A stretch of 64,000 bases of DNA from an uncultured bacterium (GCA_965613025.1 CBFDUE010000004.1:11411-75410); one strand, 5' to 3'. Numbered from the stretch's first letter, positions 7,873-32,790 are shown. Notes: a model not told the origin generated them from the sequence alone. Program-made: numbers and translations.

Positions 7873-9001
7873 AGAAATGAGTCAAGAGATAGAAAATCTG
7901 GAAAACAGGATAATGTATCATAGGTTTAGATATCATATCCTAAAGGATCCTGAAATAAACGATGAGGACTATGATAGATTATTGAATAGACTCATTGAGC
8001 TTAAAAGTAGATACGGCCTTGAAGATGCTCCTACATATAGATGGAAGAGGGACCTTAAAAGATATGTCATAAGAGATATGGAAAGGCTTATAGAGCTTTT
8101 AAATATTCAAAGGGATAGATATGACTCATTCATTGTTGAGCCTCTTTTAAAAGGTGTAGAGGTGGATCTACTCTATAGAGAGGGAAGGCTTATATCTGCA
8201 ATATCTGAAGATGATGAGCTCTTTCTACATATGTCCACCATCCTGGATGTTCCTTTACATATTTTTCCCCTATATGATAATCTCACCATTCCTCCATGGC
8301 TTACAGTTGGTATAAAGGTATATATGGAAAGGCAGGATCTAAATACATTAAATTCAGCACTTCAAAGCAGAGGCATTAGGGGTTTTAAAGACACATTTCA
8401 TGCGACCTCACATTCATTGAAAACTGATCCAAGGATTACTGCAAGAAGACCCCTTAAGATCTTTTGCTATTGGGCAAAGGCAGATTTTGGATGCGAATTT
8501 AAAAACCAGATTGAACTTATATCCTATCTTCAGAATCTGGGTTTTAGAATAAACCGAACGATGATTAGCACCTTTTCTAACCCATATGATATTGAGGAGA
8601 TCCATAAAGAGATAAGGGATGAAACAGATGAGCTTCCATACGATGTGGAAGGCATGGTAATAAGGGAAAACAGACCCCTTAAAGAGGATGGAACAGAACT
8701 CTTTATCCGATTCCTCTGGTCTCAAGAGGAGTCATCACTGAGATTTCTCTCCCTTCCCACACCTTCAAAGAATATATTTAAAGGTAAAAAGGTGTGTCTA
8801 AGTGGTTCCCTAAATTCCCTTTCATGGAATGAGATAAGGGAATATCTGGAATCCTTAGGTGCTAAGCTGGTCCATGAGCTATCATCTGACACTGATCTTC
8901 TCATCTTAGGTGATGCTCCTGGGCTAAAGCTAAGAGAAGCAAAAGAGATGGGTATTGAGATCATAGATGAAGCCACATTCTTTAAGATATTGGAGGGATA
9001 A
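7865..9001 (+). CDS. truncated, catalytically degenerate NAD+-dependent DNA ligase (LigA) paralogue: domain Ia + NTase-like fold + BRCT
   Basis: Collinear by eye with E. coli LigA at three points. Domain Ia is RYHILKDPEINDEDYDRL. The NTase region contains DPRITARRPLKIFCY. The BRCT region is KGKKVCLSGSL...LGAKL...TDLLILGDAPGLKLREAKEMGIEIIDEA. KxDG is replaced by LLKG. The OB, Zn-finger and HhH regions are absent (378 aa versus about 670). Confidence 0.75.
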   Translation: MDREMSQEIENLENRIMYHRFRYHILKDPEINDEDYDRLLNRLIELKSRYGLEDAPTYRWKRDLKRYVIRDMERLIELLNIQRDRYDSFIVEPLLKGVEVDLLYREGRLISAISEDDELFLHMSTILDVPLHIFPLYDNLTIPPWLTVGIKVYMERQDLNTLNSALQSRGIRGFKDTFHATSHSLKTDPRITARRPLKIFCYWAKADFGCEFKNQIELISYLQNLGFRINRTMISTFSNPYDIEEIHKEIRDETDELPYDVEGMVIRENRPLKEDGTELFIRFLWSQEESSLRFLSLPTPSKNIFKGKKVCLSGSLNSLSWNEIREYLESLGAKLVHELSSDTDLLILGDAPGLKLREAKEMGIEIIDEATFFKILEG

Positions 9002-13693: not shown

Positions 13694-14475
13694 TAACCCT
13701 TTTTCTCCTTTAATATAAACACCCATCCATTGGTTTCATAATCAAAGATAAGAGATATGGCAGAAATTGTCAGCGTTTTTCCATTAAATACCATCTCCAT
13801 AATCTGTTCATCACCTTGGTGTGTAGTTCTATCTCTTATAAGATCCCTTAATCGATTTATATCAGATCCCTCTGATAATTCCCATATCCTGCGACCTAAA
13901 AGATCTTCAGTGCTTAGATCCAGGATATCAGTGGCCTTAATGTTACAACCTGTTATAATACCATCGCTATCCACAAATATAATACCCATTGGAAGGGAAT
14001 TTATAATGGATTTCATGTATCTTATATGATCCAGAAGCCTTGCAGTTTCCTGCCTGGGCCAGATTTTCCTTGGTTCTATTATCTTGGTCTTTCTCTGCCT
14101 TCCCCCCTGTTCCACCTCCTCTAAGACCTTTTCAATCTCTCTTTTCATATTATTTATGGGGCCTTTTATAATTAGATAATCAACCCCCATATCTTTGGCA
14201 CTTTCCATCTGCTCAAGTAAACATCCACTATATACCACAACCACTATCCCTTTTTCTTTTGCCCATCCCTTCAAAAACTCAATGATCTGCTCCCCATCTG
14301 CATAGGAGATCATATAGTCCATAAAGATAAGATCAAAGTCTTGCCTTCTAACCATCTCAAGTCCCTTTCCCGCCCTGTAAGATCTCCAGACCCTATAGCC
14401 CCTCCCCGTAAGTATCCTCTCTAAGAATTCCACAAAGAGAAAGTCATTATCAATTATGAGTGCCTTTCCTTTCAT
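13693..14475 (-). CDS. response regulator: CheY-like receiver + PAS domain
   Basis: The receiver has an intact acidic pocket and phospho-Asp (IIDND, LIFMDY, VVYSG, IIKGP). The C-terminal part is PAS-like (GIIFVDSDGIITGCN...). Start chosen at MKGKALIID (14475) after GGAGAGAGGGGG. The ORF is open to 14499. Confidence 0.8.
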   Translation of the reverse strand: MKGKALIIDNDFLFVEFLERILTGRGYRVWRSYRAGKGLEMVRRQDFDLIFMDYMISYADGEQIIEFLKGWAKEKGIVVVVYSGCLLEQMESAKDMGVDYLIIKGPINNMKREIEKVLEEVEQGGRQRKTKIIEPRKIWPRQETARLLDHIRYMKSIINSLPMGIIFVDSDGIITGCNIKATDILDLSTEDLLGRRIWELSEGSDINRLRDLIRDRTTHQGDEQIMEMVFNGKTLTISAISLIFDYETNGWVFILKEKKG

Positions 14476-14486
14476 CCCCCTCTCTC

Positions 14487-16847
14487 CTATGTTACACATA
14501 CCCTTCTTACCTCACCCATATCCGTCTCACCACTGAGCACCTTTAAGATACCATCCTGTTTTAGTGTGGTCATTCCCTCCTTAAGTGCAGCATCTCTTAT
14601 AGTCTCTGTCTCTGCCTCTTTTTTAATAAGTTTTTTGATTGTAGCGGTTCCTTCCATGAGTTCATGAATGCCCATTCTGCCTCTATACCCTGTATTCATA
14701 CACTTATCGCATCCCTTAGGCCTATAGAGCACCAGCTCTTTGGAATATGTGATACCGGTATTTTTAAAGAACTCTTTTCCATACTCCATTACTAAGGATT
14801 CAAATTCCTCTTCATCAGGATGGTATGGCTCTCTGCAGTCTTTACAAAGCCGTCGGACCAGTCTCTGTGCCAGCACCCCGAGTAATGAGTCTGCAAAATT
14901 AAGCGGATTTATTCCCATATCCAAGAGCCTTGTGATGGTCTCTGGGGCGCTGTTGGTATGCAATGTGGAAAAGACCAGATGCCCTGTTAAAGATGCCTCC
15001 ACTGCAATGGAAGCAGTCTCTTTATCCCTCATCTCACCTATCATTATAACATCAGGATCTGCCCTGAGAAACGCCCTCATAACTCTTGCAAAATCAAGTC
15101 CAATCTTTGGCTTTACCTCTACCTGCCTCATTCCCTTCTGTGTGATCTCCACAGGATCCTCAGCAGTCCATATCTTTATCTTTGGGGTATTTATATAATC
15201 TAAGCATGCATGAAGTGTGGTGGTCTTCCCTGACCCAGTTGGACCAACCACTAAGACTATTCCATAGGGTTGGGTTATCAGCCTCTTCAGAGTTGAAAGA
15301 TTTCGCTCTGTCATCCCCATATCCTCAAGCTTCATTGCCCCTGCCTTAGCCAATATCCTGAGCACCGCATCTTCATAACCTCCCACTGTAGGGATAGTGG
15401 CCAATCTGAGCTCAAAGGGTGTTATACCCTTTCTTCTGAATTTAATCTTACCATCCTGAGGAAGGCGTCTTTCTGAGATATCAAGCCCTGCCATTATCTT
15501 TAATCTGGAAAGCACAGGTCTTGCCATACTCAATGGAAGGCTGATATATTCCTGACAGACCCCATCTAACCTAAACCTTATAATAGTCCTCTTTTCCTGA
15601 GGAGAGGGTTCAATATGAATGTCTGAGGCCCCCTGTCTAAATGCACTTAACAATATATGATCCACCGCTCTTACCACCTCTCCAGATTCCTCATCCCACT
15701 CCTCCTCTATCTCTTCTTCCTCCTCCTCAACAAGGCTTATCTTAGGAAGATTTGATAGATCTTCAAAGAGCTCCCTTTCTCTTTCCTCTTCCTCTTTCCT
15801 TTCATAGATCAGCTCTATATACCTTTCAATGTCCTCCTTAAGCCCTACATAGAATTTGATCCTATCGGTCTTAAGAAGTGCCCTTATATGATCTATCTTC
15901 ATAGGATCATTGGGATTATCCACCAAGACCTCCACACCATCTTTACTCCATCTCAATGGAACCCAGTGCTCATGAAGCAGAAAGGACTTTTTTATACTTA
16001 CCACAAGCTCTGATGGGAGCAATATATTGGGTTCAAAACCTTTAAATGGGCATCTGTAATAGTGTGAAAGGGATCTGCCTATGTCTTCCTTTTTAATGTG
16101 AAAATGCTCCATAAGGACAGTATCAATACTCTTTCCGCTTCGCTTTGATATATAAAAGGCCTCTTTTAGCTGCTCAGGGCTTATGATATGGTTCTGAATC
16201 AGATAATCATAGCGTGAGCCGGATACTATGCTTATCTTCAATATCTCCATCCTTTTCTTTATATCTGGATCCTGAGGGAATTCTTTGAGCAGCTCTTCGT
16301 AAAGGTTCCTTGCCAAATCTTTACTTCCTCTGCTATCTAAGTATTCGGCAAGCACTAAGAATGCCTCCTTGTATCTGGAGCCCTTTGAATTGATATTCTT
16401 TCTGATTATATCTTTTACCTTTTCAGTTGCCTCTGAAACACTATATCTATGTATCAGGATCTGCATCAGATTGGGAATTATCCAGGATATGGAATATCCC
16501 AAAGAAAGCAACTTTTCATACTCAGAGATAGCCCTATCCAGGAGGCCAAGTTCTTTAAATGCCTCGGCACTTTCTAAGATCTCCGATGGTGTCTGACTGA
16601 GATCAAGAGCTTCATTTATCCTGCGCAGATCTTCTGGTCCAATATCCTTTACATATCTCTTTTTTCCATCTTTAATCTTCTCTTTAAGCTCATCCATCCT
16701 TTTTTGTATCTGCCTTTTCTTTGCCTCTTCAATTGAAAAGGCATCAATTATCTCCTTATAGACACTTAGGGCCTCATCCAAAAGACCCATAGACTCGTAG
16801 GTCTCAGCCTCCCTAAGCCTCTTTTCCATATCACCGCTGCTATTCAT
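14487..16847 (-). CDS. PilB/GspE-family secretion ATPase with N-terminal TPR-repeat region
   Basis: 786 aa. About 200 aa of TPR-like repeats (AETYESMGLLDEALSVYKEI, AEAFKELGLLDRAISEYEKLL, LAEYLDSRGSKDLARNLYEELL). Then a T2SSE_N-like domain, an acidic linker, Walker A GPTGSGKTTT, IMIGEMRDKETA, TGHLVFSTLHTNS and CKDC...CDKCMNTGYRGR. Confidence 0.85.
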   Translation of the reverse strand: MNSSGDMEKRLREAETYESMGLLDEALSVYKEIIDAFSIEEAKKRQIQKRMDELKEKIKDGKKRYVKDIGPEDLRRINEALDLSQTPSEILESAEAFKELGLLDRAISEYEKLLSLGYSISWIIPNLMQILIHRYSVSEATEKVKDIIRKNINSKGSRYKEAFLVLAEYLDSRGSKDLARNLYEELLKEFPQDPDIKKRMEILKISIVSGSRYDYLIQNHIISPEQLKEAFYISKRSGKSIDTVLMEHFHIKKEDIGRSLSHYYRCPFKGFEPNILLPSELVVSIKKSFLLHEHWVPLRWSKDGVEVLVDNPNDPMKIDHIRALLKTDRIKFYVGLKEDIERYIELIYERKEEEERERELFEDLSNLPKISLVEEEEEEIEEEWDEESGEVVRAVDHILLSAFRQGASDIHIEPSPQEKRTIIRFRLDGVCQEYISLPLSMARPVLSRLKIMAGLDISERRLPQDGKIKFRRKGITPFELRLATIPTVGGYEDAVLRILAKAGAMKLEDMGMTERNLSTLKRLITQPYGIVLVVGPTGSGKTTTLHACLDYINTPKIKIWTAEDPVEITQKGMRQVEVKPKIGLDFARVMRAFLRADPDVIMIGEMRDKETASIAVEASLTGHLVFSTLHTNSAPETITRLLDMGINPLNFADSLLGVLAQRLVRRLCKDCREPYHPDEEEFESLVMEYGKEFFKNTGITYSKELVLYRPKGCDKCMNTGYRGRMGIHELMEGTATIKKLIKKEAETETIRDAALKEGMTTLKQDGILKVLSGETDMGEVRRVCVT

Positions 16848-19888: not shown

Positions 19889-21628
19889 TTGAAAGTCAAG
19901 CTGGCAAGGACAGCCGGGTTCTGCATGGGGGTTAAGAGGGCAATGGACATGGTATTAAGTGAGGCCTTAAGAGGTAATGGCCCTATCTATACCTATGGCC
20001 CCCTAATCCATAACAGACAGGTCCTTCAACTCTTGGAGCAGAAGGGGATATACTTAATAGATGATGTATCAGAGTTAAAAGAGGGGGTGCTTCTTATAAG
20101 GGCTCATGGAATACCACCACAGATAAGAGAAAAGCTAAGATCCTTGCCTTTAAAGGTGATTGATGCCACCTGTCCCAGGGTTGCGAAGGTTCAGGCAATT
20201 ATTAGATATTACAGCAGAAAGGGATATAAGACCGTTATCTTTGGTGAAAGGGAACATCCAGAGGTAATAGGTCTTTTGGGGTATGCAGAAAACGGTGCCC
20301 ATGTTATAAATTCTCTTTCAGATATTATGTCTCTTCCATCAAAAGGACCATATCTTCTGGTTGCCCAGACAACACAGGAACTCGGCCTCTTTGATGAGAT
20401 AAGTAAGGCCTTTAAGGAGAGATTTCCCGACTCTCTTATTATTAACACCATATGTGATACAACAGTTGAAAGGCAGGAAGAGGTGAAGAGGATATGTTCT
20501 GAAGTAGATGCCATGGTAGTGGTTGGAGGATATCATAGCGGAAATACAAAGAGACTTGCAGAAGTTGCAAGATCCACTGGCATTCCCACATTTCATATTG
20601 AAAGGGCAGATGAACTCCCCATTGATAAGCTATCTCACATGAAGATAGTGGGCCTTACTGGAGGAGCCTCTACCCCTAACTGGATAATAAAGGAGGTGCT
20701 TCAGAGGCTGGAGCGTATATCTTCCTATAGGGAATTGGGGATATGGAAAGGGATGAAGAGGGTTATGAGCTTTTTTTCTAAGACAAATATGATGATATTT
20801 TTGGGTGCACTGTCCCTTTCCTATGCCATTAAGAGGTTCTGGAATATGCCCATAGATGGAAGGATGTGTCTTTTAGTATCTCTATATCTTTACGGATTGC
20901 ATCTGATTAATAGGTTTTTAGATAAGGGCTCAGGCACATATAATGAGCCAGATACAGCAAGATTTTATAACAGATACAGAAAGGCCTTTGTGCTGATCTC
21001 CTCACTCTGTATTCTATTTTCACTTATACTGGCCTATAATATTGAAAAGATGGCATTTTTAATATTAATCTGCCTTACAATGATTGGTCTAGCATATAGC
21101 CTCTTTATCATACCTTCCTTTCTTCCCATACTTGGAAGATACCGTAGCATAAAGGATATACCAGGTTCCAAGACGCTATCCATACCAATTGCCTGGACCA
21201 CTATGATAGGGATTCTACCTTTTTTAGAATATGGAAAGATTACCCTGTCCCCTATACTTTTGACATGTTCCATTGTATTCTCTCTGATATTTATAAGAAC
21301 CTCTCTCTTTGATATCTTCCATATACAGGGGGATCTTATCGTAGGAACAGAGACTATCCCTGTAATTATTGGAGAAAAGAATAGCCTTAAGATTATTGAA
21401 TATCTTTCAGCCCTTATGATTTTGCCACTGTTTTATGTATATATCAGCGGAGTGGTTAGATCGCCTGAAATTCTCTTTTTTATCCTATGCTTTCCATATG
21501 CTCTGCTCTTAGTAAATATATACAGAAAGGGGTGGATATATCCTGGATTGAGGCTTGAGACTATGGTAGATGGAATCCTTATTCTGCCTGGAATACTTTC
21601 AATGATCTGGAATATTCTATTAAAATAA
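19889..21628 (+). CDS. ispH: IspH (HMBPP reductase) fused to a C-terminal UbiA-like polytopic membrane domain
   Basis: Residues 1 to about 280 form a complete IspH with the three cluster cysteines (GFCMGV, DATCPRV, NTICDTT). Residues from about 290 to 579 carry about 9 predicted TM helices. UbiA-like loop motifs are LINRFLDKGSGTYNEP (after TM2) and FDIFHIQGDLIVGTETIPVIIG. TTG start 7 nt after AAGGAG. Confidence 0.8.
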   Translation: MKVKLARTAGFCMGVKRAMDMVLSEALRGNGPIYTYGPLIHNRQVLQLLEQKGIYLIDDVSELKEGVLLIRAHGIPPQIREKLRSLPLKVIDATCPRVAKVQAIIRYYSRKGYKTVIFGEREHPEVIGLLGYAENGAHVINSLSDIMSLPSKGPYLLVAQTTQELGLFDEISKAFKERFPDSLIINTICDTTVERQEEVKRICSEVDAMVVVGGYHSGNTKRLAEVARSTGIPTFHIERADELPIDKLSHMKIVGLTGGASTPNWIIKEVLQRLERISSYRELGIWKGMKRVMSFFSKTNMMIFLGALSLSYAIKRFWNMPIDGRMCLLVSLYLYGLHLINRFLDKGSGTYNEPDTARFYNRYRKAFVLISSLCILFSLILAYNIEKMAFLILICLTMIGLAYSLFIIPSFLPILGRYRSIKDIPGSKTLSIPIAWTTMIGILPFLEYGKITLSPILLTCSIVFSLIFIRTSLFDIFHIQGDLIVGTETIPVIIGEKNSLKIIEYLSALMILPLFYVYISGVVRSPEILFFILCFPYALLLVNIYRKGWIYPGLRLETMVDGILILPGILSMIWNILLK

Positions 21629-21635
21629 GGGATCC

Positions 21636-22580
21636 ATGCCTCTGGTCTCTGTAATAATTCCCACATTTAACAGGGCAAGATTGGTAAAAAGGGCAATCAG
21701 CTCTGTGTTGTATCAGGATTTTAAAGACTATGAGATAATTGTGGTAGATGATGGATCTCAAGATGAGACATCCTCTGTCTTAGATCGCTTTAGCAGGTAT
21801 ATAAAGATAATCAGACACAAGAAAAATATGGGTGTATCTTCTTCCAGAAATAGCGGTATCAGGGCATCTTCATCCCCCTTTTTGTCATTCTTGGATTCTG
21901 ATGACTACTGGTTTTCAAAAAAGTTAAAGATTCAGACTGAATATATGTTGGAGCATCCGGATTGCAAGATCTGCCAGTGTGAAGAGATCTGGATAAGAGG
22001 GGGCAGGAGGGTAAATCCTAAAAATATTCATAAAAAGGAAGGGGGTTATATATTTGAAAGATCTCTAAGGCTATGTCTTATAAGTCCCTCTGCGGTGATA
22101 ATTAGAAGGGAGCTATTTGATGAAGTGGGCCTATTTGATGAGGAGCTTCCAGCCTGTGAAGACTATGACATGTGGCTTAGGATCTCTTCAAAGTATCCTG
22201 TGCATCTTATAAAGAGATATCTTTTAGTCAGGGAAGGGGGGAGGCAAGATCAGCTATCTTACAGAATAAAGGGTCTTGATAGGTTCAGGATAAGATCCAT
22301 GGTAAAGCTCTTAAAGGAGGGGAATCTGGATAAAAGGCAGATAACTGCTCTTTTAAGAGAGCTAAGGAGAAAATGTGATATCTATGGAACAGGGTGTATA
22401 AAGAGGGGAAAGATAGAGGAGGGGAATTTCTATCTTTCCCTTCCTCAAGTTTTAGAGTGGCATCTGATTAGTTCAGGACTTATCCAGGATCACCACATCC
22501 AGCCTACCTCCAAGGGCTTCTTGGATCAGGAAGATATGAAAGATCCAGCCAGAATTAATTTCTATCCAATACTCTCCTGA
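21636..22580 (+). CDS. family 2 glycosyltransferase
   Basis: VSVIIPTFNRARLVKRAISSVLYQDFKDYEIIVVDDGSQDET and a DSDD motif. The last ~35 codons read through an antisense remnant of the MBL gene 3' end (see the repeat feature). Confidence 0.85.
   Translation: MPLVSVIIPTFNRARLVKRAISSVLYQDFKDYEIIVVDDGSQDETSSVLDRFSRYIKIIRHKKNMGVSSSRNSGIRASSSPFLSFLDSDDYWFSKKLKIQTEYMLEHPDCKICQCEEIWIRGGRRVNPKNIHKKEGGYIFERSLRLCLISPSAVIIRRELFDEVGLFDEELPACEDYDMWLRISSKYPVHLIKRYLLVREGGRQDQLSYRIKGLDRFRIRSMVKLLKEGNLDKRQITALLRELRRKCDIYGTGCIKRGKIEEGNFYLSLPQVLEWHLISSGLIQDHHIQPTSKGFLDQEDMKDPARINFYPILS
22243..22525. repeat. long direct repeat, copy A (intact GT2 3' end + remnant of the MBL-hydrolase 3' end)
   Basis: Aligns by eye with 30693-30983 at roughly 90% identity with one ~10-nt indel. 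The minus-strand reading of 22470-22525 gives IQEALGGRLDVVILDKS*. The genuine MBL C-terminus is FRDALQGKLDVVILDKS*. Confidence 0.85.
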
Positions 22581-25443
22581 CCTCTTTTAACATCTCTTTT
22601 AGATTAAAGGGCTTTCTGATTATCCCCTTTATATAGATACCCTCTTTTCCCAGATCCATCTCACCTATGGAGTATCCTGTGCTCAAAATCACCTTTATAT
22701 CTGGATCTATCTCAGAAAGCCTTTTAAGACATTCCTTTCCATCCATCTCAGGCATGATAAGATCTAAGATAACGAGATCCACCTTCTCCCTCTGATATAT
22801 CTCCAATGCCTTCTTTCCATTTTCTGCAGTAATCACCTTATATCCATATCTGCAAAGCACCTCTTTGCCCAGCTTAAGAAGTGACTCTTCATCATCCACA
22901 AATAAGATTGTTTCCTTTCCATAAGGCACAGAGGCATTCTCTTCAATATCCTTCTGGCTGATTTCCCCATTTTCACCTTTTATTACAGGAAAGTATATCT
23001 TAAATGTAGTTCCTACCCCAGGCATACTATCCACTGTTATATGACCACCATGAGCCTTAACTATCCCATATACAGTAGAAAGTCCGAGTCCAGTGCCTTT
23101 TCCTTCCGGTTTAGTGGAAAAGAATGGTTCAAAGATCCTGCTCATGGTCTCCCTGTCCATTCCACAGCCTGTATCAGATACCTTAAGCATCACATAGTCT
23201 CCCTTTTCAATACCAGGAATTTTCGTTGATATCTCCTCATCTAAGGAGACATATTTGGTCTCTATGGTGATCTTTCCGCCCTCTGGCATGGCATCCCTTG
23301 AATTTATTGCTAAATTTAAGAGTATCTGCTCGATCTGTATTGAATCACCTCTAATAAGGGGAAGAGACTCCGAGAGTTTAAGTTCAACACCTATTATCTT
23401 TGGAATGGTTCTCTCTATCAATTTCACTGCCCCTCTTATTTCCATATTTAGATCTATGGGACTCAGTTTTAACTCTGCCTTTCTGCTAAAAGTGAGGATC
23501 TGTTTTGTAAGTTCAGAAGCCTTTAAGGCCGCATTTTTTATCTGTTTGATTGCATTTATATCCTGCTCTGATCTTCCTTTATCCATTAAGAGAAGCTCTG
23601 CATAGCCTAAGATTGCATTCAGGATATTATTGAAGTCATGGGCAATGCCTCCTGCAAGGGTTCCGATGGCTTCCATCTTCTGTGCCTGAAAGAGCTGTAA
23701 CTGAAGTCTCTTCCTTTCGGTTAAATCTATTATAATGCCTCTATGACCTATTATATTCCCTTTTTCATCTCTAAATTCAGTTGCTGTTATAAGAGCCTCA
23801 ATGATCCTTTCTCCATTGCCTTTTAAAGCCGCTTCAAAGTCCTTTACAAAGCCCTTTCTTTTAATCCCTTCTTCAAATTTTATACACTCCTTTGGATCTA
23901 AAAACAGTTTCTGAAATTTTATTTTTCTAAATTTATTCCTGCTGTAGCCAAAGAGTTCCTCTCCTGCTGGATTCATTTCAAGAAATCCCTCTCCATCTTT
24001 ATAGACATAGATCACATCTTTTGAGGATTCAAATAGCTCCCTAAATCTTCGCTCTGATTCCCTAAGGGCCTCTTGAATCTTCTTAATTGGAGTAATATCT
24101 AAGAGAGAGGCTATATTCTTTTTGGTCCCTGGAATCATTCCGACAGAGATAAAAACGTTTTTTAAATTCTTTTCCTTATCTAAAAATCTGAATTCATATT
24201 CATGTGGAGCCATACTTGGATCAATCCTTCTTAGCCTTGCATATTCAAGCATCCTCTCTCTGTCATCTGGATGAACAAATTCTGTTAAGCTCATCTTTCC
24301 CTCAATCTCTTCTCTACGATATCCAGAGAGCTTTTCAAAGACCTTATTACATAATAAAATTGTGGTATCTTTATCCACAATAGTTAATCCGGTTCCTGAT
24401 GCCTCAAAAATTGCCTTATAAAAACTTTCAGATTCCTCTAAGGCCTTCCTCAAGCTGTTCAGCATCCTGTTAAAAGCCTGAGTCATTACCTTCAGCTCTA
24501 AATATGGCATCTCATCTGGAGGTGGAAGATCAAGATTATACTCTCCTTCTGATATCTTTTGAGCTCTCTCAGAGGCCAATTTAAGAGGATTTGAGAGTCT
24601 CTTGGCCAAGATCAGCGCAATTCCTATGCCCAAAGATAGGGCAGCTATTGAAAGAGAGAGAAGAATTAAAAGGACCTCCTTTTTGGTTTTTTCAAGCGGA
24701 CTCAGATCCGAAAACAATAGCAATCCTGAAAATATATCAAGCTTACTGATTAGGCCCTTCTTCTCTCCCACCTCCACTTCCACTGCATCTTCAATTAAAT
24801 GGGAATTATCTGGTAGGATAATCCTCTTCCCTGAAATAAGACCTATAGCATCTCTTTTTCCACTTCGGTAGTAGATCTCTCCTCTGGCTGTAAGTCTGAT
24901 ATCTTTTAGAAGCCCTCTGTCCTGGTCTAAAAAATAGAGACAGACCGCCCTTCCCACCTTTTCATATCTCCGCTCTATGGTTTTAGAAAGCAAAAGCAAA
25001 GGCCTTCCTTTAAAAGATTCAAAGAGTTCCATCTCCTTATCAGTGCTAAGAATTCTCTTAATTAGCTCTTTATGCAATTCGGAAGGGGAAGGAATAATGA
25101 GCTTATCCCTCTCAATAGTTCCTTCCACATAAAAGTATGCACCGTTCTCTGGAAAATATAGCATCTCCATTCTCTCTCTTAGCTGGGGAATTACCCCAAG
25201 CAACAGGGTAACCTTTATAGTATTGTCATTGATAAGGTTCCTAAGCCTTCCTTTTAATTGAGAGATCCTTAAAGAGAGAAGGGATTTAGCCTGATGTCTC
25301 TGGACCTTGAATTTTTCCCTAAATTCCCTCTCAATATGTCTTTTTAAAAGAAGATAGGTGATTCCAGAGGTAAAAGATATAGAGATTAGGACAACAATCA
25401 TAATTGCAGAGATCAAGATTCCTGAAAGGGATCTCTCTTTCAC
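22555..25443 (-). CDS. hybrid sensor histidine kinase (periplasmic sensor region, TM, HAMP, PAS x2, HisKA, HATPase, C-terminal receiver)
   Basis: H-box GGIAHDFNNILNAILGYAELL, G-boxes (VSDTGCGM, GTGLGLS), and receiver LVILDLIMPEMDG...RKPF. ATGA overlap with the upstream binding-protein gene. Confidence 0.88.
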   Translation of the reverse strand: MKERSLSGILISAIMIVVLISISFTSGITYLLLKRHIEREFREKFKVQRHQAKSLLSLRISQLKGRLRNLINDNTIKVTLLLGVIPQLRERMEMLYFPENGAYFYVEGTIERDKLIIPSPSELHKELIKRILSTDKEMELFESFKGRPLLLLSKTIERRYEKVGRAVCLYFLDQDRGLLKDIRLTARGEIYYRSGKRDAIGLISGKRIILPDNSHLIEDAVEVEVGEKKGLISKLDIFSGLLLFSDLSPLEKTKKEVLLILLSLSIAALSLGIGIALILAKRLSNPLKLASERAQKISEGEYNLDLPPPDEMPYLELKVMTQAFNRMLNSLRKALEESESFYKAIFEASGTGLTIVDKDTTILLCNKVFEKLSGYRREEIEGKMSLTEFVHPDDRERMLEYARLRRIDPSMAPHEYEFRFLDKEKNLKNVFISVGMIPGTKKNIASLLDITPIKKIQEALRESERRFRELFESSKDVIYVYKDGEGFLEMNPAGEELFGYSRNKFRKIKFQKLFLDPKECIKFEEGIKRKGFVKDFEAALKGNGERIIEALITATEFRDEKGNIIGHRGIIIDLTERKRLQLQLFQAQKMEAIGTLAGGIAHDFNNILNAILGYAELLLMDKGRSEQDINAIKQIKNAALKASELTKQILTFSRKAELKLSPIDLNMEIRGAVKLIERTIPKIIGVELKLSESLPLIRGDSIQIEQILLNLAINSRDAMPEGGKITIETKYVSLDEEISTKIPGIEKGDYVMLKVSDTGCGMDRETMSRIFEPFFSTKPEGKGTGLGLSTVYGIVKAHGGHITVDSMPGVGTTFKIYFPVIKGENGEISQKDIEENASVPYGKETILFVDDEESLLKLGKEVLCRYGYKVITAENGKKALEIYQREKVDLVILDLIMPEMDGKECLKRLSEIDPDIKVILSTGYSIGEMDLGKEGIYIKGIIRKPFNLKEMLKEVRRVLDRN

Positions 25444-26519
25444 TTTGCAATAACCTCATCCGCTGCCATCAGAATATCTTCTGGAATGTCAATTCCAAGC
25501 TCCCTTGCCCTTGAAAGATTAAATACAAGGGCATATCTTTTAGCATCTTCAATAGGAATTTCACCTGCCCTCTTTCCATTTAATATCTTAACCACCATCT
25601 GGCCAGCCTGATATCCCATTGCCCTGAAATCCACCCCTGCACCTCCAAATAGCCCTAATTTAACAAATGCATAGTTTATGGCCATTGAAGGGATAGAAAG
25701 ATGTCCTGTTATCCAGTTAAATATCTCAGGAGCTGTATAGGAATTTCCATATCTATCCTTAAGAAGTAAGGCTGCAGGATAGAGTGAACTTACATGAGGA
25801 TCTTTCCTGATCCTTCTTATCTCTTCCTTAAAATGCTCCCAGCTCTTCACCACCCTGATTTCAATCTTGCATGGTGGCTTTTCATCTTTTATCTCTTGCT
25901 CTATCTGCCTTATAAGGGCTCTACCTGTGGGAGAATACCTCTCTACGAGCACTACCACCTTATCTAAGGTGCCCAGGATTTTACTTTGCACCTTCAGGGC
26001 ATCAATAAAATGTAGCTTTTCATAGACCCCTGTGATGTTATGCCCCGGCCTCTCTCTTGATTCAATGCACGGTATTATCTTGTGATAGTATTCCGGTTGA
26101 AAATTCATTCCTGAAAATACAATGGAAATAGATGTATCCACCAAGCTCAACCCCACATATCTAAAGGCATTGTCATCGAAGGTAACCAAAATATCCGGAC
26201 TGAATTCTTCAATAAGCCTGAGTGCGATATTGGCACGTTCTCTTATCTTCTCAGGAGTATTAAACCTCCTCTTTGTGTCCATATAAAATACCATAAAGTT
26301 CTTACCTTCTTTCAAGAGATATCCCGAATCTTCTATTGCCCTTACACATCCCTCATACTGCGGCTGACCGCATACATGACCCTTCTCATAGCTATGCACA
26401 AAGAAGATCTTTTTTTGATACAGTTGCTGACTGTGGCCATATGGACAGATAAGCGAAAAAAGAGATATTAATATAAGAGAGAAGGTTAATAAGACTTTCA
26501 CGGCAGATCCAAATTTCAA
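25440..26519 (-). CDS. periplasmic ABC-type substrate-binding-like protein (ABC_sub_bind/PF04392-like)
   Basis: Signal peptide, then a family-like pattern (IVFSGMN...RPGHNITGVYE, AGQMVVKILNGKRAGEIPIE). No ABC permease or ATPase is adjacent. It is co-transcribed with the hybrid kinase. Confidence 0.65.
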   Translation of the reverse strand: MKFGSAVKVLLTFSLILISLFSLICPYGHSQQLYQKKIFFVHSYEKGHVCGQPQYEGCVRAIEDSGYLLKEGKNFMVFYMDTKRRFNTPEKIRERANIALRLIEEFSPDILVTFDDNAFRYVGLSLVDTSISIVFSGMNFQPEYYHKIIPCIESRERPGHNITGVYEKLHFIDALKVQSKILGTLDKVVVLVERYSPTGRALIRQIEQEIKDEKPPCKIEIRVVKSWEHFKEEIRRIRKDPHVSSLYPAALLLKDRYGNSYTAPEIFNWITGHLSIPSMAINYAFVKLGLFGGAGVDFRAMGYQAGQMVVKILNGKRAGEIPIEDAKRYALVFNLSRARELGIDIPEDILMAADEVIAK

Positions 26520-26681
26520 AAGTTTAATTATTTATTTAAATCATTGAATTCCTTTTTTCAACCACTCTTTTTTTGCCTTGGTCTTGATTGTAGGAGCCTT
26601 CTTTTAACTTCCAAGATCTAAAATTTTCTCTACCAAAGGCCGATTAATTAAGAAAAGTCTATATATTTGGATCAGGAGATT

Positions 26682-28391
26682 ATGAACATGAACTTAATCA
26701 CTCAGATATATAAAATTTTAAGGCTATCGATCTTAGATATTCCTCACAATAGGCTTTTAAAATCTATTCTGGATATTCTTTCCACTGATCCAAACTCCTC
26801 TGTAAAGAGAGGAGGTTGCCTCTATATCTTTCAGAATAATAGGCTTAAATTATCTGTCCATAATGGATTAGGAAATGAGGTGACTTGCGAATGCCCTGAG
26901 ATTGAAGTGGGTCAGTGTCTTTGTGGAAAGGCAGCCCAGATATGCAGAGTTCAAATTTTGGAACACCGTGAGAGAAATCATCTTCATCTATATGTTCCAA
27001 TAATCTTTAAAAGCCGACTGTATGGACTCATCAATCTATATCTACCAAATGGTTATAGATATTCAGCCAAGGAAGAGCAGTTTTTAAAATTAGCATCGGT
27101 CTGGATCGGGGAGTTATTGAATAGGAAATTAGATGAAGAGAAATTAAAAGAGGCGCATATAGAGACACGCCTTATTTTAGATTCTGTAGGAAGTATAATT
27201 ATAGGATTAAATAGGGAAAATCGAGTGAGAATCTGGAATAGAGGTGCGGAAAAGATCTTGGGAATAAGTCAGAGTGAGATAATTGGTAGAAAGATAGATG
27301 AATGTGATATCTTATGGGATCTTGAAAAGATCAGAGCGGGTATTTCAGAATGCAGAATAAAAAGGACTCCTATAAGACTTGATGAATTAGATTTTAAAAG
27401 ACCTGATGGAAGCAGAGGATTTCTGGGAATAACCATTAATCCAATATTTGATTACAATAAGATGAATGTGATTATATATGGAGCTGATATCACAGAGAGA
27501 AAAAATTTAGAATTACAACTCGCACATACCCAAAAGTTAGAGTCTATTGGACAATTGGCAGCCGGTATCGCACATGAGCTAAACACTCCAACCCAATACA
27601 TCGGGGATAATATAAGATTTCTCAATGACTCATTCCGGGATCTGACCAGCCTAATTGATTATATAATGAAATTTTTAAATAGAGGTGAAACAGAAACAGA
27701 CCCCCTTCCCATTGATGAGATTAAAAAGAGGATGGAACAATTAGATATGAGTTTTCTATTGAAAGAGATACCTAAGGCTATTGAGCAATCCTTGGAGGGG
27801 ATTGATCGTATCTCCCAGATTATCCAGTCAATTAAAGAATTCTCTCATCCAGGCTCAAAGGAAAGGGCGTCAGTTGATATTAACAGATGCATTCAAAATG
27901 CTATTACAATATCAAAAAACGAATGGAAATATGTAGCTGAGCTGACAACTGATCTAAAACCAGACCTCCCACATATATATGGATATCCTCAAGAACTAAA
28001 TCATGTCTTTCTAAATATCATAATTAATGCAGCTCATGCTATAAAAGAGAGACTAAAAAGGAATAAAGAGGAAATTAAGGGAAGAATCCATATAAAAACA
28101 GATACATCTGAGGGATTTGTGGAAATAAGAATAAGCGATAATGGGATAGGAATCCCCAGAAGTATTCAAAAGAGAATATTTGATCCTTTCTTTACCACTA
28201 AGGAGGTGGGTAAAGGCAGTGGACAAGGTTTAGCGATAACCCACAGGATAGTGGTAAAAAAGCATAATGGCTCTATCTTCTTTGAAACAGAAGAAGGGAA
28301 AGGCACCACCTTTATCATAAGGCTTCCTATTAATAATCTCTCAAGTGGTGAGGGAGGATATGAAAAAGGCCAGGATATTATTTGTGGATGA
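26682..28391 (+). CDS. cytoplasmic sensor histidine kinase (Cys-rich GAF-like domain, PAS, HisKA, HATPase)
   Basis: No TM segment. H-box LAAGIAHELNTPTQYIGDN, then NIIINAAHA, ISDNGIGIP and GSGQGLA. Start chosen at the ATG at 26682 after AGGAG. The ORF is open from the TTG at 26667. Confidence 0.85.
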   Translation: MNMNLITQIYKILRLSILDIPHNRLLKSILDILSTDPNSSVKRGGCLYIFQNNRLKLSVHNGLGNEVTCECPEIEVGQCLCGKAAQICRVQILEHRERNHLHLYVPIIFKSRLYGLINLYLPNGYRYSAKEEQFLKLASVWIGELLNRKLDEEKLKEAHIETRLILDSVGSIIIGLNRENRVRIWNRGAEKILGISQSEIIGRKIDECDILWDLEKIRAGISECRIKRTPIRLDELDFKRPDGSRGFLGITINPIFDYNKMNVIIYGADITERKNLELQLAHTQKLESIGQLAAGIAHELNTPTQYIGDNIRFLNDSFRDLTSLIDYIMKFLNRGETETDPLPIDEIKKRMEQLDMSFLLKEIPKAIEQSLEGIDRISQIIQSIKEFSHPGSKERASVDINRCIQNAITISKNEWKYVAELTTDLKPDLPHIYGYPQELNHVFLNIIINAAHAIKERLKRNKEEIKGRIHIKTDTSEGFVEIRISDNGIGIPRSIQKRIFDPFFTTKEVGKGSGQGLAITHRIVVKKHNGSIFFETEEGKGTTFIIRLPINNLSSGEGGYEKGQDIICG

Positions 28392-29538
28392 TGAGCCAAA
28401 CATCTTAGATGGGATCAAAAGAGAGTTGAGAAAGATGAAGGGTAGATGGGAGCTTTTCTTTACCAATACCCCTGAAAATGCTTTACAGTTAATAGAACAG
28501 CACTCCTTTGATATAGTGGTATCTAATATAAAGATGCCTTCAATGGACGGGCTGACCCTATTAAAAAAGATTAAAGAATCTCATCCCACAATTATCAGAG
28601 TCACATTAAGTGGAGAGGTAGACAAAGAGAAGATTCTAAAAACATCTCTCATTGCCCATCAGCACCTATCCAAACCATGTTCTAAGGCCTCTTTAGTAGG
28701 CACAATCCAATCTCTGTTAAAGATAAGGGGGATATTAACTAATCCTAAGATAAAGGCTATAGTATCAAAACTATCCAGGGTTCCTACACTTCCTTCTCTC
28801 TATATTAAGATTACTGAGTACATGCAAAAGGGTGACGCCTCCCTAAAAAAGATAGGTGATATAATCTCTCAAGATCCCTTTATGACAGCCAAGATATTAC
28901 AGATAGTAAACTCTTCCTATTTTGGATATGGTGGAAAAATTAAATCCCCTCAACAGGCTGCGGTTATCTTAGGTTTGGAGACTTTAAAGAGCATAATATT
29001 AGGACTGGGAATCTTTTATGGCCTTCAGGGAGAGAGGGAAAAAAGAGAGATGGATTCCTTATGGAATCACAGTATAAGATGTGCAAGGATAGCAGAGAAG
29101 ATTGCACTTAGAGAATCTAATGACATCGGCTTTTCTGAAAAGGCCTTCTTAGTAGGACTATTACATGATCTGGGAAAGGTTGTAATTATAACAAATTTCT
29201 TTGATCTATATAAAAAGATTAAAGATTCCTCTTCTCCCTTAGACACAGAGAGGCAGGAATTGGGATGCACACACTCAGAGATTGGAGCATATCTTCTGGG
29301 TCTCTGGGGTTTTGAAGAGGAGGTAATAAGAGCGGTAAACTCCCATCATAAAGATTGCCTTATAAAAGACCAGGGCTTATCCGATATTCTCTGTTTTGCA
29401 AATCTATTTTCCAAAAGAGCCCTGCAATCAGAAGCAGATCTTGAAGATGATCATTATCTGAACTCTAAGGGGGAGATTCTAAAAAGATGGATCTCATATA
29501 TTCATGAAGATGAGACTTTGGAGAAGATGAATGAATAG
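28360..29538 (+). CDS. receiver (phospho-acceptor Asp replaced by Asn) + HDOD domain protein
   Basis: The receiver is ILFVDDEPN...DIVVSNIKMPSMDG...LSKPC. The HDOD-like region is LPTLPSLYIKITEYMQ...ISQDPFMTAKILQIVNSSYFG...LLHDLGK. Start at MKKARILF (28360) after GAGGGAGGA. Confidence 0.8.
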   Translation: MKKARILFVDDEPNILDGIKRELRKMKGRWELFFTNTPENALQLIEQHSFDIVVSNIKMPSMDGLTLLKKIKESHPTIIRVTLSGEVDKEKILKTSLIAHQHLSKPCSKASLVGTIQSLLKIRGILTNPKIKAIVSKLSRVPTLPSLYIKITEYMQKGDASLKKIGDIISQDPFMTAKILQIVNSSYFGYGGKIKSPQQAAVILGLETLKSIILGLGIFYGLQGEREKREMDSLWNHSIRCARIAEKIALRESNDIGFSEKAFLVGLLHDLGKVVIITNFFDLYKKIKDSSSPLDTERQELGCTHSEIGAYLLGLWGFEEEVIRAVNSHHKDCLIKDQGLSDILCFANLFSKRALQSEADLEDDHYLNSKGEILKRWISYIHEDETLEKMNE

Positions 29539-30676
29539 CAAAATTCTCATTGTTGATGATGAACAGAGGGTCTTAGATGGAATAAAGAGGTATTTAGGAC
29601 GAGAATATAGGATGGATACAGCCCTTGGCCCAGAGGAGGCCTTAAGCAAGATATCCAAAGATGGTCCATATTCAGTGATAATCTCTGATCTAAGAATGCC
29701 TAAAATGGATGGCATTCAACTTTTAATCAGGGTCAAGGAGATATCTCCTGATACGACAAGAATCATCCTTACGGGCTATGCAGAACTTGAAAGCGCCATT
29801 GAGGCTGTAAATAAAGGGCATATCTTTAGATTTCTTACAAAGCCATGCTCCCCTGAGATACTTAGAAAGACCATAGAGCAAGGGATAAGACAATATGAAT
29901 TAATTGTATCTGAAAGGACCTTATTAGAGAAGACACTAAAAGGGATTGTTAATGTATTAATGGAGGTCCTATCTCTACTGAATCCTGAGGCATGGGATAG
30001 GGCAATGAGGATTAAAGAATATACAAAGATGATCTTAGGAGGCCTGGGTATAGAAGATGACTGGGAAATAGAAACTGCCTCTATGCTTTCTCAGATCGGT
30101 TGCATTATGTTATCTGAAGAGACCATAAAAAAGATCTGCTCAGGCAAACCTCTTACACCTGAAGAGACTCAACTCTATGAGATGTCTCCCATGATAGGCT
30201 ATGATCTTTTGTGTCATATACCCAGGATGGAAAAAGTGGCTGAAATAATCAGATATATGGATAAGAACTTTGATGGGACAGGTATTCCAAAAGATGATAT
30301 TAAAGGGGATAAAATTCCTCTCGGATCAAGAATCCTAAAGGTTGCTGTGGATTTTGATACCATAAATAATGAGCTACACGATCCCCTCAAATCAATTCAA
30401 CACCTTAAAGAAAGAAGTCAATATTATGATCCTAAAATCTTAGAAGCCTTTAATAATGCTCTATATGGAAAAAAGGAATCAAAAGTTAGATATCTAAAAT
30501 TAGATGAGTTGAAGCCAGGGATGAAATTAGAGCAAGATATAAAGACACTAAAAGGAAGGCTTCTGATTAGCTCTGGCCATAGATTAAATGAGGTAACCAT
30601 CAGAAAGCTTTTGGCATATAGAGAAATTGAAAAGATACCAGAGCCTATTAAAGTCCTCGTCCAAGATTATTTTTAG
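29531..30676 (+). CDS. response regulator with a degenerate HD-GYP-like output domain
   Basis: The receiver is canonical (ILIVDDE, VIISDLRMPKMDG, LTKPC). The output domain is collinear with HD-GYP, but HD is replaced (MLSQIG), HHE is replaced (RYMDKNFDG) and GYP becomes GIP. Confidence 0.75.
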   Translation: MNSKILIVDDEQRVLDGIKRYLGREYRMDTALGPEEALSKISKDGPYSVIISDLRMPKMDGIQLLIRVKEISPDTTRIILTGYAELESAIEAVNKGHIFRFLTKPCSPEILRKTIEQGIRQYELIVSERTLLEKTLKGIVNVLMEVLSLLNPEAWDRAMRIKEYTKMILGGLGIEDDWEIETASMLSQIGCIMLSEETIKKICSGKPLTPEETQLYEMSPMIGYDLLCHIPRMEKVAEIIRYMDKNFDGTGIPKDDIKGDKIPLGSRILKVAVDFDTINNELHDPLKSIQHLKERSQYYDPKILEAFNNALYGKKESKVRYLKLDELKPGMKLEQDIKTLKGRLLISSGHRLNEVTIRKLLAYREIEKIPEPIKVLVQDYF

Positions 30677-30692
30677 GTAACTGATTAAGGAA

Positions 30693-30930
30693 GGCAAGAT
30701 CAGCTATCTAACAGCATAGAGTATCTTGATAGGTTCAGGATAAGATCCATGGTAAAGCTCTTAAAGGAGGAAGATCTGGATAAAATGATAAAATGCAGAT
30801 AACTGCTCTTTTAAGAGAGCTAAGGAGAAAAAGCAATACCTATGGAAAAGGGTGTATAAAGAGGGGAAAGATAGAAGAGAGAAATTTCTATCTTTCCCTT
30901 CCTCAGCTTTTAGAGTGGCATCTGATAGGT
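30693..30930 (+). pseudogene. GT2 glycosyltransferase 3'-end fragment (part of direct repeat copy B)
   Basis: In the GT2 frame it reads QDQLSNSIEYLDRFRIRSMVKLLKEEDLDKMIKCR*. A ~10-nt insertion (a duplicated gataaaat) shifts the frame, and no 5' part of the gene is present. Confidence 0.8.
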
Positions 30931-30983
30931 TCAGGACTTATCCAAGATTACCACATCCAGCTTACCTTGTAGGGCATCTCTGA
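30693..30983. repeat. long direct repeat, copy B (GT2 3' fragment + 3' end of the intact MBL-hydrolase gene)
   Basis: See copy A. Both copies share an 11-bp-stem hairpin (gggaaagatag...ctatctttccc at 22406-22440 and 30864-30898). The substitutions between the two copies fall only in its loop. Confidence 0.85.
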
Positions 30984-31560
30984 ATCTCTCTGCATCGCTT
31001 CTATCTCCCACAATTGCTCCATAGTGCATGGGAATAGCAATTTTAGGATTAATATCCAGTGCTGCTTCCACCGCCTGATCTGCTGTCATTACATAGGTGC
31101 CAGATACTGGAAGAAGTGCAATATCCACATTAAAGTTCTTCATTTCAGGAATATGGTCAGTATCGCCAGCGTGGTATATCCTTATCCCTTCCACCTCTAA
31201 GATAAACCCTAACCACTGATTTTTCTTTGGATGAAAGTCCTTATCTGTGTTATAAGCAGGCACTGCCTCTATCTTGATATCTCCTATTTCAACCCTATCG
31301 CCAGGTTTTACCACTCTTATGTCTCCTTTAAGCTTCTTAGAGGAGTCCTTTTCAGTTACAATCACGGTATCCTGTTTCTGAATCTTTTCCACATCTTCAG
31401 GAGAGCAGTGGTCAAAATGCTCATGGCTTATGAGTATTATGTCAGCAGCAGGGCCTCCTGAGATCTGATAGGGATCAATATAGATGATCTTAGCGGTTTC
31501 AATCCTGAATCCATCATGTCCTAACCAATAAATCTTTTTAACCATTTCCTTTACATCCAT
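30931..31560 (-). CDS. MBL-fold metallo-hydrolase
   Basis: ILISHEHFDHC (HxHxDH) and a downstream His/Asp pattern. 209 aa. Confidence 0.8.
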   Translation of the reverse strand: MDVKEMVKKIYWLGHDGFRIETAKIIYIDPYQISGGPAADIILISHEHFDHCSPEDVEKIQKQDTVIVTEKDSSKKLKGDIRVVKPGDRVEIGDIKIEAVPAYNTDKDFHPKKNQWLGFILEVEGIRIYHAGDTDHIPEMKNFNVDIALLPVSGTYVMTADQAVEAALDINPKIAIPMHYGAIVGDRSDAERFRDALQGKLDVVILDKS

Positions 31561-32585: not shown

Positions 32586-32661
32586 ATCCCTTACAGAGCT
32601 TTACATAACCCCTTTTTACACTGGGGGTTACACCCCCCTCCGGGTCAGAGACCCAACCCCG

Positions 32662-32736
32662 GTCATTGCGAGCGAAGCGAAGCAATCTCATACATTTTAT
32701 AGATTGCTTCGGGTCTTTTAAGACCCTCGCAATGAC
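32662..32736. repeat. compound inverted repeat predicted to fold as a three-way junction (REP-like element or small structured RNA)
   Basis: Outer arms are gtcattgcgag (32662-32672) and ctcgcaatgac (32726-32736). The first inner hairpin is gaagcaatct (32679-32688) with agattgcttc (32701-32710). The second inner hairpin is gggtct-ttta-agaccc (32711-32726). Confidence 0.5.
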
Positions 32737-32752
32737 AGATTCCATCTACAGC

Positions 32753-32790
32753 TTTTTTCTGAGAGCTTTGAAAAATTCAAAGCTCTCGCT
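32753..32790. repeat. 38-nt palindromic element, copy 2 (inverted relative to copy 1)
   Basis: ttttttctGAGAGCTTTGAAaaaTTCAAAGCTCTCgct. The reverse complement matches 2041-2078 at 37 of 38 positions. Confidence 0.85.

Follow-up and report, generated by a model that had tools for sequence, protein, structure and literature searches.

Here we report an 8.2-kb block of five signalling genes that sits at the tail-to-tail meeting point of a GT2 glycosyltransferase gene and a metallo-beta-lactamase (MBL)-fold hydrolase gene in an uncultured marine Desulfobacteraceae bacterium. The locus was studied within a 64,000-nucleotide stretch of its DNA, called the window (GCA_965613025.1 CBFDUE010000004.1:11411-75410). 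The five genes encode a hybrid sensor histidine kinase (HK1), a periplasmic solute-binding protein (SBP), a cytoplasmic histidine kinase (HK2) and two response regulators, one with an HDOD domain (RR_HDOD) and one with an HD_5 domain (RR_HD5). They are bracketed by two direct repeats of ~285 bp, each of which carries the 3' ends of both neighbouring genes. The reading that we favour, and hold to be probable though well short of established, is that the block is a lineage-specific insertion made without a recombinase, accompanied by duplication of the ~285-bp junction, and that the two copies of the junction later recombined. Insertion together with direct duplication of the overlapping convergent 3' ends would leave GT2 and MBL both complete.

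The duplicated junction and the cassette

The two repeat copies, A on the GT2 side and B on the MBL side (Table 1), are 87-90% identical. BLAST aligned 22239-22521 with 30689-30979 at 87.3% over 291 columns, gaps counted (E about 1e-90), and MAFFT agreed with BLAST on the homologous blocks. A repeat finder paired 22329-22521 with 30787-30979 (193 nt, 90%) and 22218-22335 with 30668-30785 (118 nt, 84%), and the offsets of these pairs, 8458 and 8450, imply one 8-nt indel, which is a tandem duplication of GATAAAAT in copy B at 30779-30794. An earlier reading of this DNA (the original prediction) had proposed direct repeats of ~90% identity with one ~10-nt indel; the computed alignment bears this out and sets the indel at 8 nt. 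Each copy also matched the counterpart of the other copy in L001, L002, L162 and L163-L167 with E values of about 1e-87 to 1e-109. The boundaries of the repeat are blurred by about 10 nt and clear microhomology is absent. An extension of the left boundary into the stop region of RR_HD5 was considered and rejected, the similarity there being too weak to separate from chance.

The gene content of the copies is also as predicted, with the intact 3' end of GT2 in copy A, the intact 3' end of MBL in copy B and a remnant of the other gene in each. The last ~95 codons of GT2 lie in copy A and beyond. The MBL remnant in copy A ends ..LDVVILDKS*, with its stop at 22473-22475, compared with FRDALQGKLDVVILDKS at the C-terminus of intact MBL. 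When the GT2 fragment of copy B is read without the 8-nt duplication, it continues to a TAG at 30970-30972 and overlaps MBL by 42 nt. The same TAG is the stop of the 292-aa GT2 of a sister lineage, ~95-96% identical to the window lineage, which indicates that the ancestral GT2 overlapped MBL by 42 nt. In copy A the window lineage has lost this stop (TAG to AAG, plus an adjacent change), and the sister-lineage GT2 stays at 292 aa (L162, L165, L166, L172). The stop loss adds a 22-codon tail to GT2 (window 22508-22580), which crosses the MBL remnant and extends 26 nt into DNA antisense to the 3' end of HK1.

The original prediction that five signalling genes fill the space between the copies was confirmed by open reading frames (ORFs) and Pfam searches: they occupy 22555-30676, stop codon to stop codon. 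These genes, of two-component/c-di-GMP type, are transcribed divergently as two modules, with SBP-HK1 on the minus strand and the other three (HK2, RR_HDOD and RR_HD5) on the plus strand. Non-coding DNA between the repeats amounts to ~29 nt on the left, 147 nt in the middle and ~13 nt on the right, less than 200 nt in total. SBP and HK1 overlap by 4 nt, and SBP is probably the sensor partner of HK1, whose NCBIfam matches all lie under their cut-offs. RR_HD5 is a putative cyclic di-GMP (c-di-GMP) phosphodiesterase on its domain content; against the NCBIfam NosR-family c-di-GMP phosphodiesterase response regulator it scored 263 bits and did not reach the cut-off of 400.

Pfam and NCBIfam identified all five ORFs between the repeats as signalling proteins and no integrase, transposase, recombinase or excisionase among them. 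The repeat finder gave no inverted repeat pairing the cassette ends, and tRNA and Rfam scans gave no tRNA and no RNA family. The prediction that transposase, integrase and terminal inverted repeats are lacking was therefore upheld, and a tRNA is lacking as well.

The same arrangement was recovered in other assemblies. L001 (ENA ERZ27227314, assembled with MEGAHIT k141, 99.6% identical) and L163 (Joint Genome Institute [JGI] 3300028891, 99.5% identical) each span both repeats and all five genes; L164 (98.7%) and L167 (98.0%) each contain one of the repeats together with its joins. In run X1 the locus is tiled by Logan contigs of even depth. Sediment, hydrothermal vents and seawater are the sample types in which the lineages occur (runs X1-X7).

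Table 1. Features of the GT2/MBL locus, in window coordinates
Feature	Position	Strand	Description
IspH-UbiA fusion	19889-21628	+	ORFs and Pfam; IspH (LytB) fused to a UbiA-type prenyltransferase membrane domain, 579 aa
GT2 glycosyltransferase	21636-22580	+	314 aa; Pfam PF00535, E=5e-32
Repeat copy A	22239-22525		Functional GT2 3' end, hairpin, MBL 3' remnant
Hairpin in copy A	22403-22443		16-17-bp stem; -24.7 (+) and -22.6 (-) kcal/mol; z=-5.3 on minus strand
MBL 3' remnant in copy A	22473-22525	-	Last 17 codons, ..EALGGRLDVVILDKS*; read from the sequence
HK1, hybrid sensor histidine kinase	22555-25443	-	962 aa; transmembrane-HAMP-PAS-PAS-HisKA-HATPase-REC; Pfam
SBP, periplasmic solute-binding protein	25440-26519	-	ABC_sub_bind family (PF04392); Pfam
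Divergent intergenic region SBP/HK2	26520-26666		147 bp
HK2, cytoplasmic GAF-PAS histidine kinase	26667-28391	+	Pfam
RR_HDOD, response regulator, REC + HDOD	28345-29538	+	Pfam PF00072, PF08668, E=6e-50
RR_HD5, response regulator, REC + HD_5 (HD-GYP-like)	29531-30676	+	Pfam PF13487, E=4e-31
Repeat copy B	30689-30983		Decaying GT2 3' fragment, hairpin, functional MBL 3' end
GT2 3' pseudogene fragment in copy B	30692-30972	+	Frameshifted by the GATAAAAT duplication
Hairpin in copy B	30861-30901		16-17-bp stem; -25.3 (+) and -23.7 (-) kcal/mol
MBL-fold hydrolase (Lactamase_B_3)	30931-31560	-	209 aa; Pfam PF13483, E=6e-33

Past MBL the gene order is CooT, DUF3842, DJC28 and GroES/EL. Elsewhere in the window, two stretches of ~112 nt (12321-12432 and 14953-15063) cross-match at ~79%. 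They sit in the neighbouring large minus-strand ORFs 11864-13726 and 14487-16847, which are probably paralogous genes and whose L172 counterparts carry MshEN/T2SSE ATPase domains.

The locus in distant relatives and in a sister lineage

The unoccupied site was sought by searching GT2 against one genome per species and MBL against JGI metagenomes. Five relatives have GT2 directly convergent on MBL and no cassette, with a 53-bp overlap of the two genes in L003 and gaps of 43 bp in L100, 133 bp in L092, 266 bp in L096 and 504 bp in L091. The surrounding gene order, (Dus-)IspH/UbiA-GT2><MBL-DUF3842, is also kept in L100 and L091. These five loci make the empty site the ancestral state, in agreement with the convergence of GT2 and MBL that had been predicted. 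These relatives are distant, with amino-acid identities of 56-63% for GT2 and 67-71% for MBL, and the junction duplication is absent in all five. A search of 5.8 billion proteins with MBL returned homologues at 94-100% and then none above 77%, with nothing in the 78-93% range; in the JGI metagenome scan the best closer MBL reached 73% or less. L170, a 76% MBL match, was examined as a closer empty site and set aside, its gene context being different and uninformative here. The IspH-UbiA fusion upstream of GT2 is kept in many Desulfobacterales/Syntrophobacterales relatives, including L004, L023, L025, L039, L055, L091 and L100.

Between the window lineage and the sister lineage the cassette is 95.1-96.2% identical and the flanks 93.1-96.5%. 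Being as diverged as its flanks, the cassette was already present in the common ancestor of both lineages (~95-96% identical). In the sister lineage it is split and permuted around a third copy of the repeat (R), so that the five-gene cassette of the original prediction holds for the window lineage and is not a fixed unit.

Five sister-lineage contigs from different samples (L002, L162, L165, L166 and L172; ~96%) read IspH-GT2(292 aa)-R-relic-HK2-RR-RR, where RR-RR are the two response regulators; L172 stops in RR_HDOD. The relic between R and HK2, seen in L162 and L002, consists of collinear pieces matching window 22937-23001, 23222-23242 and 26291-26328, the first of them 97% identical to HK1 of L168; these collinear pieces indicate that HK1-SBP eroded in place. 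RR_HD5 is followed by a degraded repeat at which the contigs end. It begins with a stub of 15 nt, continues with a 40-nt palindrome forming one end of a miniature inverted-repeat transposable element (MITE), and closes with the right ~130 nt of R, where a 16-nt deletion lying between direct repeats of GAGGGGAA has taken away the 5' arm of the hairpin. L168, from the sample of L162, and L169, from the metagenome-assembled genome (MAG) of L166 (accession series HDI...), read R(right part)-HK1-SBP-(MITE)-R piece-MITE-R(right part)-MBL-CooT and onward.

Over 105 nt the terminal repeat of L162 shares 99% identity with the repeat next to HK1 in L168, and it is only ~90% identical to the MBL-adjacent repeat. 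It has a B-type left junction, and the HK1-adjacent copy of L168, which is not joined to GT2, has an A-type right junction; to its left, the L162 repeat shows the palindrome, 26 nt and 16-nt deletion that are also seen at the MBL-adjacent copy. By these junction types, the middle repeat of L162 and L168 is the hybrid expected of a crossover between copies B and A. In run X4 the depth is 6-10 over the flanks and ~9.6-9.8 over both sub-cassettes, which fits one genome rather than two strains. The inner breakpoints, 26618 and 26633, both fall in the 147-bp divergent promoter region between SBP and HK2, so that each retained module keeps its upstream sequence. The most economical reading of the contigs is a single locus, GT2-R-relic-(HK2-RR-RR)-R(hybrid B/A)-(HK1-SBP)-junk-R-MBL, and its arrangement is best read as a repeat-mediated tandem duplication followed by reciprocal loss. 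The join RR_HD5-R-HK1 in such a locus equals a circle-type junction and is better explained as the joint of a tandem duplication.

The differences between copies A and B were examined in the GT2 frame. By codon position they number 9/5/7, and they make 14 codons differ nonsynonymously and 3 synonymously. Two residues of the motif KCxIYGxGC that are invariant in five outgroups, a Cys and an Ile, are missing from copy B. On this pattern the copy B differences are attributed to decay of a pseudogene and not to divergence of two functional homologues. Copy B of L164, a strain 98.7% identical to the window, is without the 8-nt duplication and frameshift, as is the sister-lineage repeat piece; it carries A-type states, including a strain-specific G common to copy A of L163. 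Several variant sites are shared crosswise by copies of both lineages. Such mosaic variants among copies in different strains indicate gene conversion between the copies. The ~10% divergence of A and B is thus put down to decay plus gene conversion and does not signal a diverged donor; because of the mosaic variants and gene conversion, attempts to date the event, or to recognise such a donor, by this divergence were given up.

Both copies contain the hairpin that had been predicted, with copy-to-copy differences confined to the loop; its stem is 16-17 bp by computation and not 11 bp as first proposed. On the minus strand the z-scores of the two hairpins are -4.6 to -5.3. The copy A hairpin lies downstream of the HK1 stop and the copy B hairpin 30 nt downstream of the MBL stop, both on the minus strand. 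The empty-site relative L003 has a homologous hairpin at the equivalent place in the GT2 3' coding region, followed on the MBL strand by CCCCUUUUUAU, and the two together have the form of a canonical intrinsic terminator; the window copies are followed on the minus strand only by CCCCUCUUUAU. The repeat hairpin would then be a homologue of the MBL intrinsic terminator embedded antisense in GT2. In copy A it presumably terminates HK1, and possibly GT2 too; in copy B it presumably terminates MBL, and possibly RR_HD5 too. The duplication would supply a terminator to HK1 (copy A) besides MBL (copy B), and both new convergent pairs, GT2><HK1 and RR_HD5><MBL, would inherit the hairpin. Promoter and terminator consensus scans gave no enrichment of promoter-like or terminator-like sites.

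Several further observations concern the sister lineage and its repeated elements. In L165 (2202-3888) HK2 is called as two ORFs of 260 and 278 aa, which suggests that in this strain the gene is frameshifted or is becoming a pseudogene, or that the assembly is in error. The 16-nt deletion is common to both degraded non-GT2 copies (L162 11213-11260; L168, reverse-complemented, ~178-200 and ~4883-4900; L169). The MITE palindrome lies 26 nt from the deletion in 2 of the 3 sequenced versions, namely after RR_HD5 in L162/L165 and in the MBL-adjacent copy of L168/L169, and might serve as a structural substitute for the deleted hairpin arm.

In the window, a ~200-bp MITE-like element is found at 32589-32788, with internal inverted repeats GTCATTGCGAG...CTCGCAATGAC and the terminal palindrome GAGAGCTTTGAAAAATTCAAAGCTCTC; the palindrome recurs at 2041-2078, with a 2-mismatch copy at 8094-8112. 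The element is also present in L163 and is missing at that site in L001, L164 and L168, and in L168 and L169 further copies are embedded in the repeat next to MBL. Logan contigs cover the element at 590-3400x and the flanks at 10-45x, marking the element as a high-copy dispersed repeat. Logan contigs of runs X1 and X4 join its left end (32595) to 28379, 30838 and 31311, which suggests further polymorphic MITE insertions in some populations; the join at 30838 matches the L168-type repeat, and on their shorter arm those at 28379 and 31311 match over no more than 22-44 letters. Another MITE-like element, ~173 nt long and bounded by AAGTTTGACAATTGG... and ...ACTAACTTTCAAACT, occurs at 1-177 and 4395-4567 of L168 (reverse-complemented). 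One copy is located between the SBP upstream region and the repeat fragment, and a partial copy (85% over 83 nt) adjoins the HK1-adjacent repeat; the element is absent from the window.

Formation of the insertion

The first step of the insertion would most likely be the homologous integration of DNA in which the cassette ends were already linked to a copy of the junction, Campbell-type for a circle and ends-in for a linear piece. We put this route forward tentatively, with less confidence than the insertion itself. Afterwards the two copies would be substrates for host homologous recombination, including gene conversion between A and B. In the sister lineage an unequal crossover of copy B with copy A would have produced a tandem duplication R-C-R-C-R, C being the cassette, after which HK1-SBP would have eroded in the first unit and HK2-RR-RR been deleted in the second. 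The end state would be GT2-R-(relic)-HK2-RR-RR-R-HK1-SBP-(MITEs)-R-MBL.

The composition of the cassette was compared with that of its flanks, a check proposed along with the original prediction, and a modest deviation was found. The cassette is the most compositionally deviant 8-kb stretch of the window, with a tetranucleotide distance of 0.0158 vs 0.006-0.009 for stretches away from it. Its genes have a GC content of 0.382 vs 0.411 (p=0.004), a GC3 of 0.363 vs 0.401 (p=0.025) and a worse codon fit (p=0.002), clearest for HK2-RR-RR; HK2 is the most deviant gene of the window (GC 0.361, codon fit 0.088). These values are compatible with acquisition from elsewhere. Among 5.8 billion proteins HK2 had nothing above 55% identity beyond its own cluster, and neither 161 related loci nor the rest of the 64-kb window contained a cassette homologue above 38%. 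A circle junction, that is a join going back ~8.45 kb, was not seen in the Logan contigs of four runs, which are built at k=31, drop rare forms and break inside the repeat. Of the insertion scenario first proposed, the ancestral convergence of GT2 and MBL stands; the arrival of DNA with its own junction copy is a plausible proposal, with no donor, circle or closer relative found.

A number of points weigh against the reading of an insertion with later recombination between the copies. The Campbell model only shifts the origin back one step, as it needs a molecule already linking the cassette ends and the junction, and a donor locus, a circular form and an empty-site recombinant are absent from the Logan contigs of the four runs (X1-X4) and from the protein databases. 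The modest compositional deviation could equally reflect low expression or the amino-acid content of signalling proteins. In the sister lineage no single contig spans RR_HD5-R-HK1, and in L168 the 177 nt to the left of the HK1-adjacent repeat are different, consisting of a MITE-like repeat. The short-copy variants are mosaic and partly homoplastic, so that the copy genealogies are weak. For the hairpin, structure and position point to a terminator, the U-tract in the window (CCCCUCUUUAU) is poor, and the terminator consensus scan did not call the window hairpins because their loop exceeds 8 nt.

The strongest competitor, which we consider unlikely but worth serious attention, is a single non-homologous or replicative event, in which either ~285-bp staggered breaks were filled in after ligation of a linear 8.2-kb piece, or a replication fork jumped onto the cassette source as template and came back 285 bp upstream. 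It would explain the first origin without DNA already carrying the junction, with the long target-site duplication arising de novo. Both copies are full-length with the insert exactly between them, no recombinase is present, and the strong hairpin inside the duplicated segment could be a fragile site; decay and gene conversion explain the A/B differences, so that the copies may have begun identical. However, the repeat boundaries are fuzzy over ~10 nt with no clear microhomology, and neither the rest of the 64-kb window nor the databases yielded a source copy of the cassette. We know of no bacterial mechanism that gives staggered cuts of ~285 nt.

Much less probable, in our judgement, is a self-spreading "homology-hitchhiking" cassette that would loop out as an R+cassette circle through host RecA, pass by transformation to other cells of the species and re-insert by Campbell recombination at GT2/MBL. 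If this were true, the block would be a self-sufficient mobile islet without any element-encoded enzyme, whose own junction copy restores both genes and the terminator, and the three-repeat sister locus would record a second integration and not an unequal crossover.

We give slightly less weight still to a two-step history, in which a tandem duplication of the junction (GT2-R-R-MBL) first uncoupled the overlapping ends and the cassette later entered the dispensable middle. Short tandem duplications are common, and a duplication across the overlap leaves both genes intact and yields about 285 bp of dispensable DNA. Against this, the insert lies within ~10 nt of the R|R boundary and both copies are full-length, which is a coincidence if insertion was random in ~285 bp, and no junction duplication occurs in the five empty-site relatives.

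A decayed site-specific integrative element, an integrase island supplying replacement 3' ends whose mobility genes were later lost, ranks close behind and is likewise improbable. The architecture does resemble that of Escherichia coli e14, where icd extends into the prophage and a displaced icdC pseudogene lies at the opposite end (PMC13626634). The cassette nevertheless holds no integrase, excisionase or non-signalling ORF, and its 29, 147 and 13 nt of non-coding DNA leave no room for remnants. There is no tRNA, no short att-like core stands out in the repeat, and a recombinase is absent in 13 of the 13 carrier contigs examined.

A larger duplication followed by deletions was rejected as unparsimonious, since it requires three events and a second downstream cassette, of which there is none within 33 kb. 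An assembly artefact in the form of a chimeric join at a repeat can be practically dismissed: the data are metagenomic and contigs of the sister lineage frequently end at the repeat, but the same joins across one or both copies recur in three further assemblies from different samples and assemblers, no stretch identical between the copies is as long as the MEGAHIT k of 141, and Logan contig depth is continuous over the locus.

Comparison with known systems

The locus offers a natural example of a multi-gene signalling block gained at a tail-to-tail junction with neither neighbour damaged. It also illustrates how a long duplication becomes a recombination substrate, with gene conversion, tandem duplication and complementary loss leading to a permuted gene order. 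It may be used as a case study for integrase-free islets and for the reading of long direct repeats in MAGs; it neither opens a new class of system nor settles a long-standing question.

Among known processes, Campbell-type integration of a suicide plasmid, or ends-in integration, likewise places an insert between direct copies of the homology segment and involves no dedicated recombinase. Here the insert is flanked by direct copies of one chromosomal segment, and relatives, all of them distant, have a single-copy unoccupied site. Campbell-type products can amplify or excise between the copies, and the sister lineage shows the signature of amplification. Unlike Campbell-type constructs, the present case is a natural event, its homology spans a convergent two-gene junction and both genes are intact.

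Transposons and insertion sequences also leave an insert bracketed by a direct target duplication. Known target-site duplications measure 2-15 bp, or a few tens of bp for casposons or CRISPR repeats. In contrast, the duplication described here is ~285 bp long and comes with neither a transposase nor terminal inverted repeats.

The prophage e14 and phage 21, which insert in icd, are similar in that the 3' end of a gene is duplicated, one copy being functional and the other a pseudogene fragment; the GT2/MBL locus has such a duplicated target 3' end and no encoded integrase. In E. coli, icd runs into e14 and a displaced C-terminal pseudogene, icdC, lies at the other end, and recombination between the duplicated 3' ends gives chimeras or excision (PMC13626634). 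Unlike the present case, e14 has a site-specific integrase and excises on SOS induction. The repeat described here further differs in covering two opposite-strand genes and what appears to be their shared terminator, and the cargo consists of signalling genes only.

The sister lineage, with its three repeats, hybrid middle copy, reciprocal module loss and circularly permuted order, recalls duplication-degeneration-complementation. Both the hybrid third repeat copy and in-place remnants of lost genes, as expected of a tandem duplication, are present. Unlike in that process, loss here went by operon or module and not by subfunctions of one gene, and the linkage is deduced from separate contigs. 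Taken together, the locus is an islet without an integrase whose target duplication, spanning a convergent gene junction, is unusually long. As an instance of genome evolution it is clear yet ordinary: it varies processes that are already known and does not represent a mobile element of a new kind.

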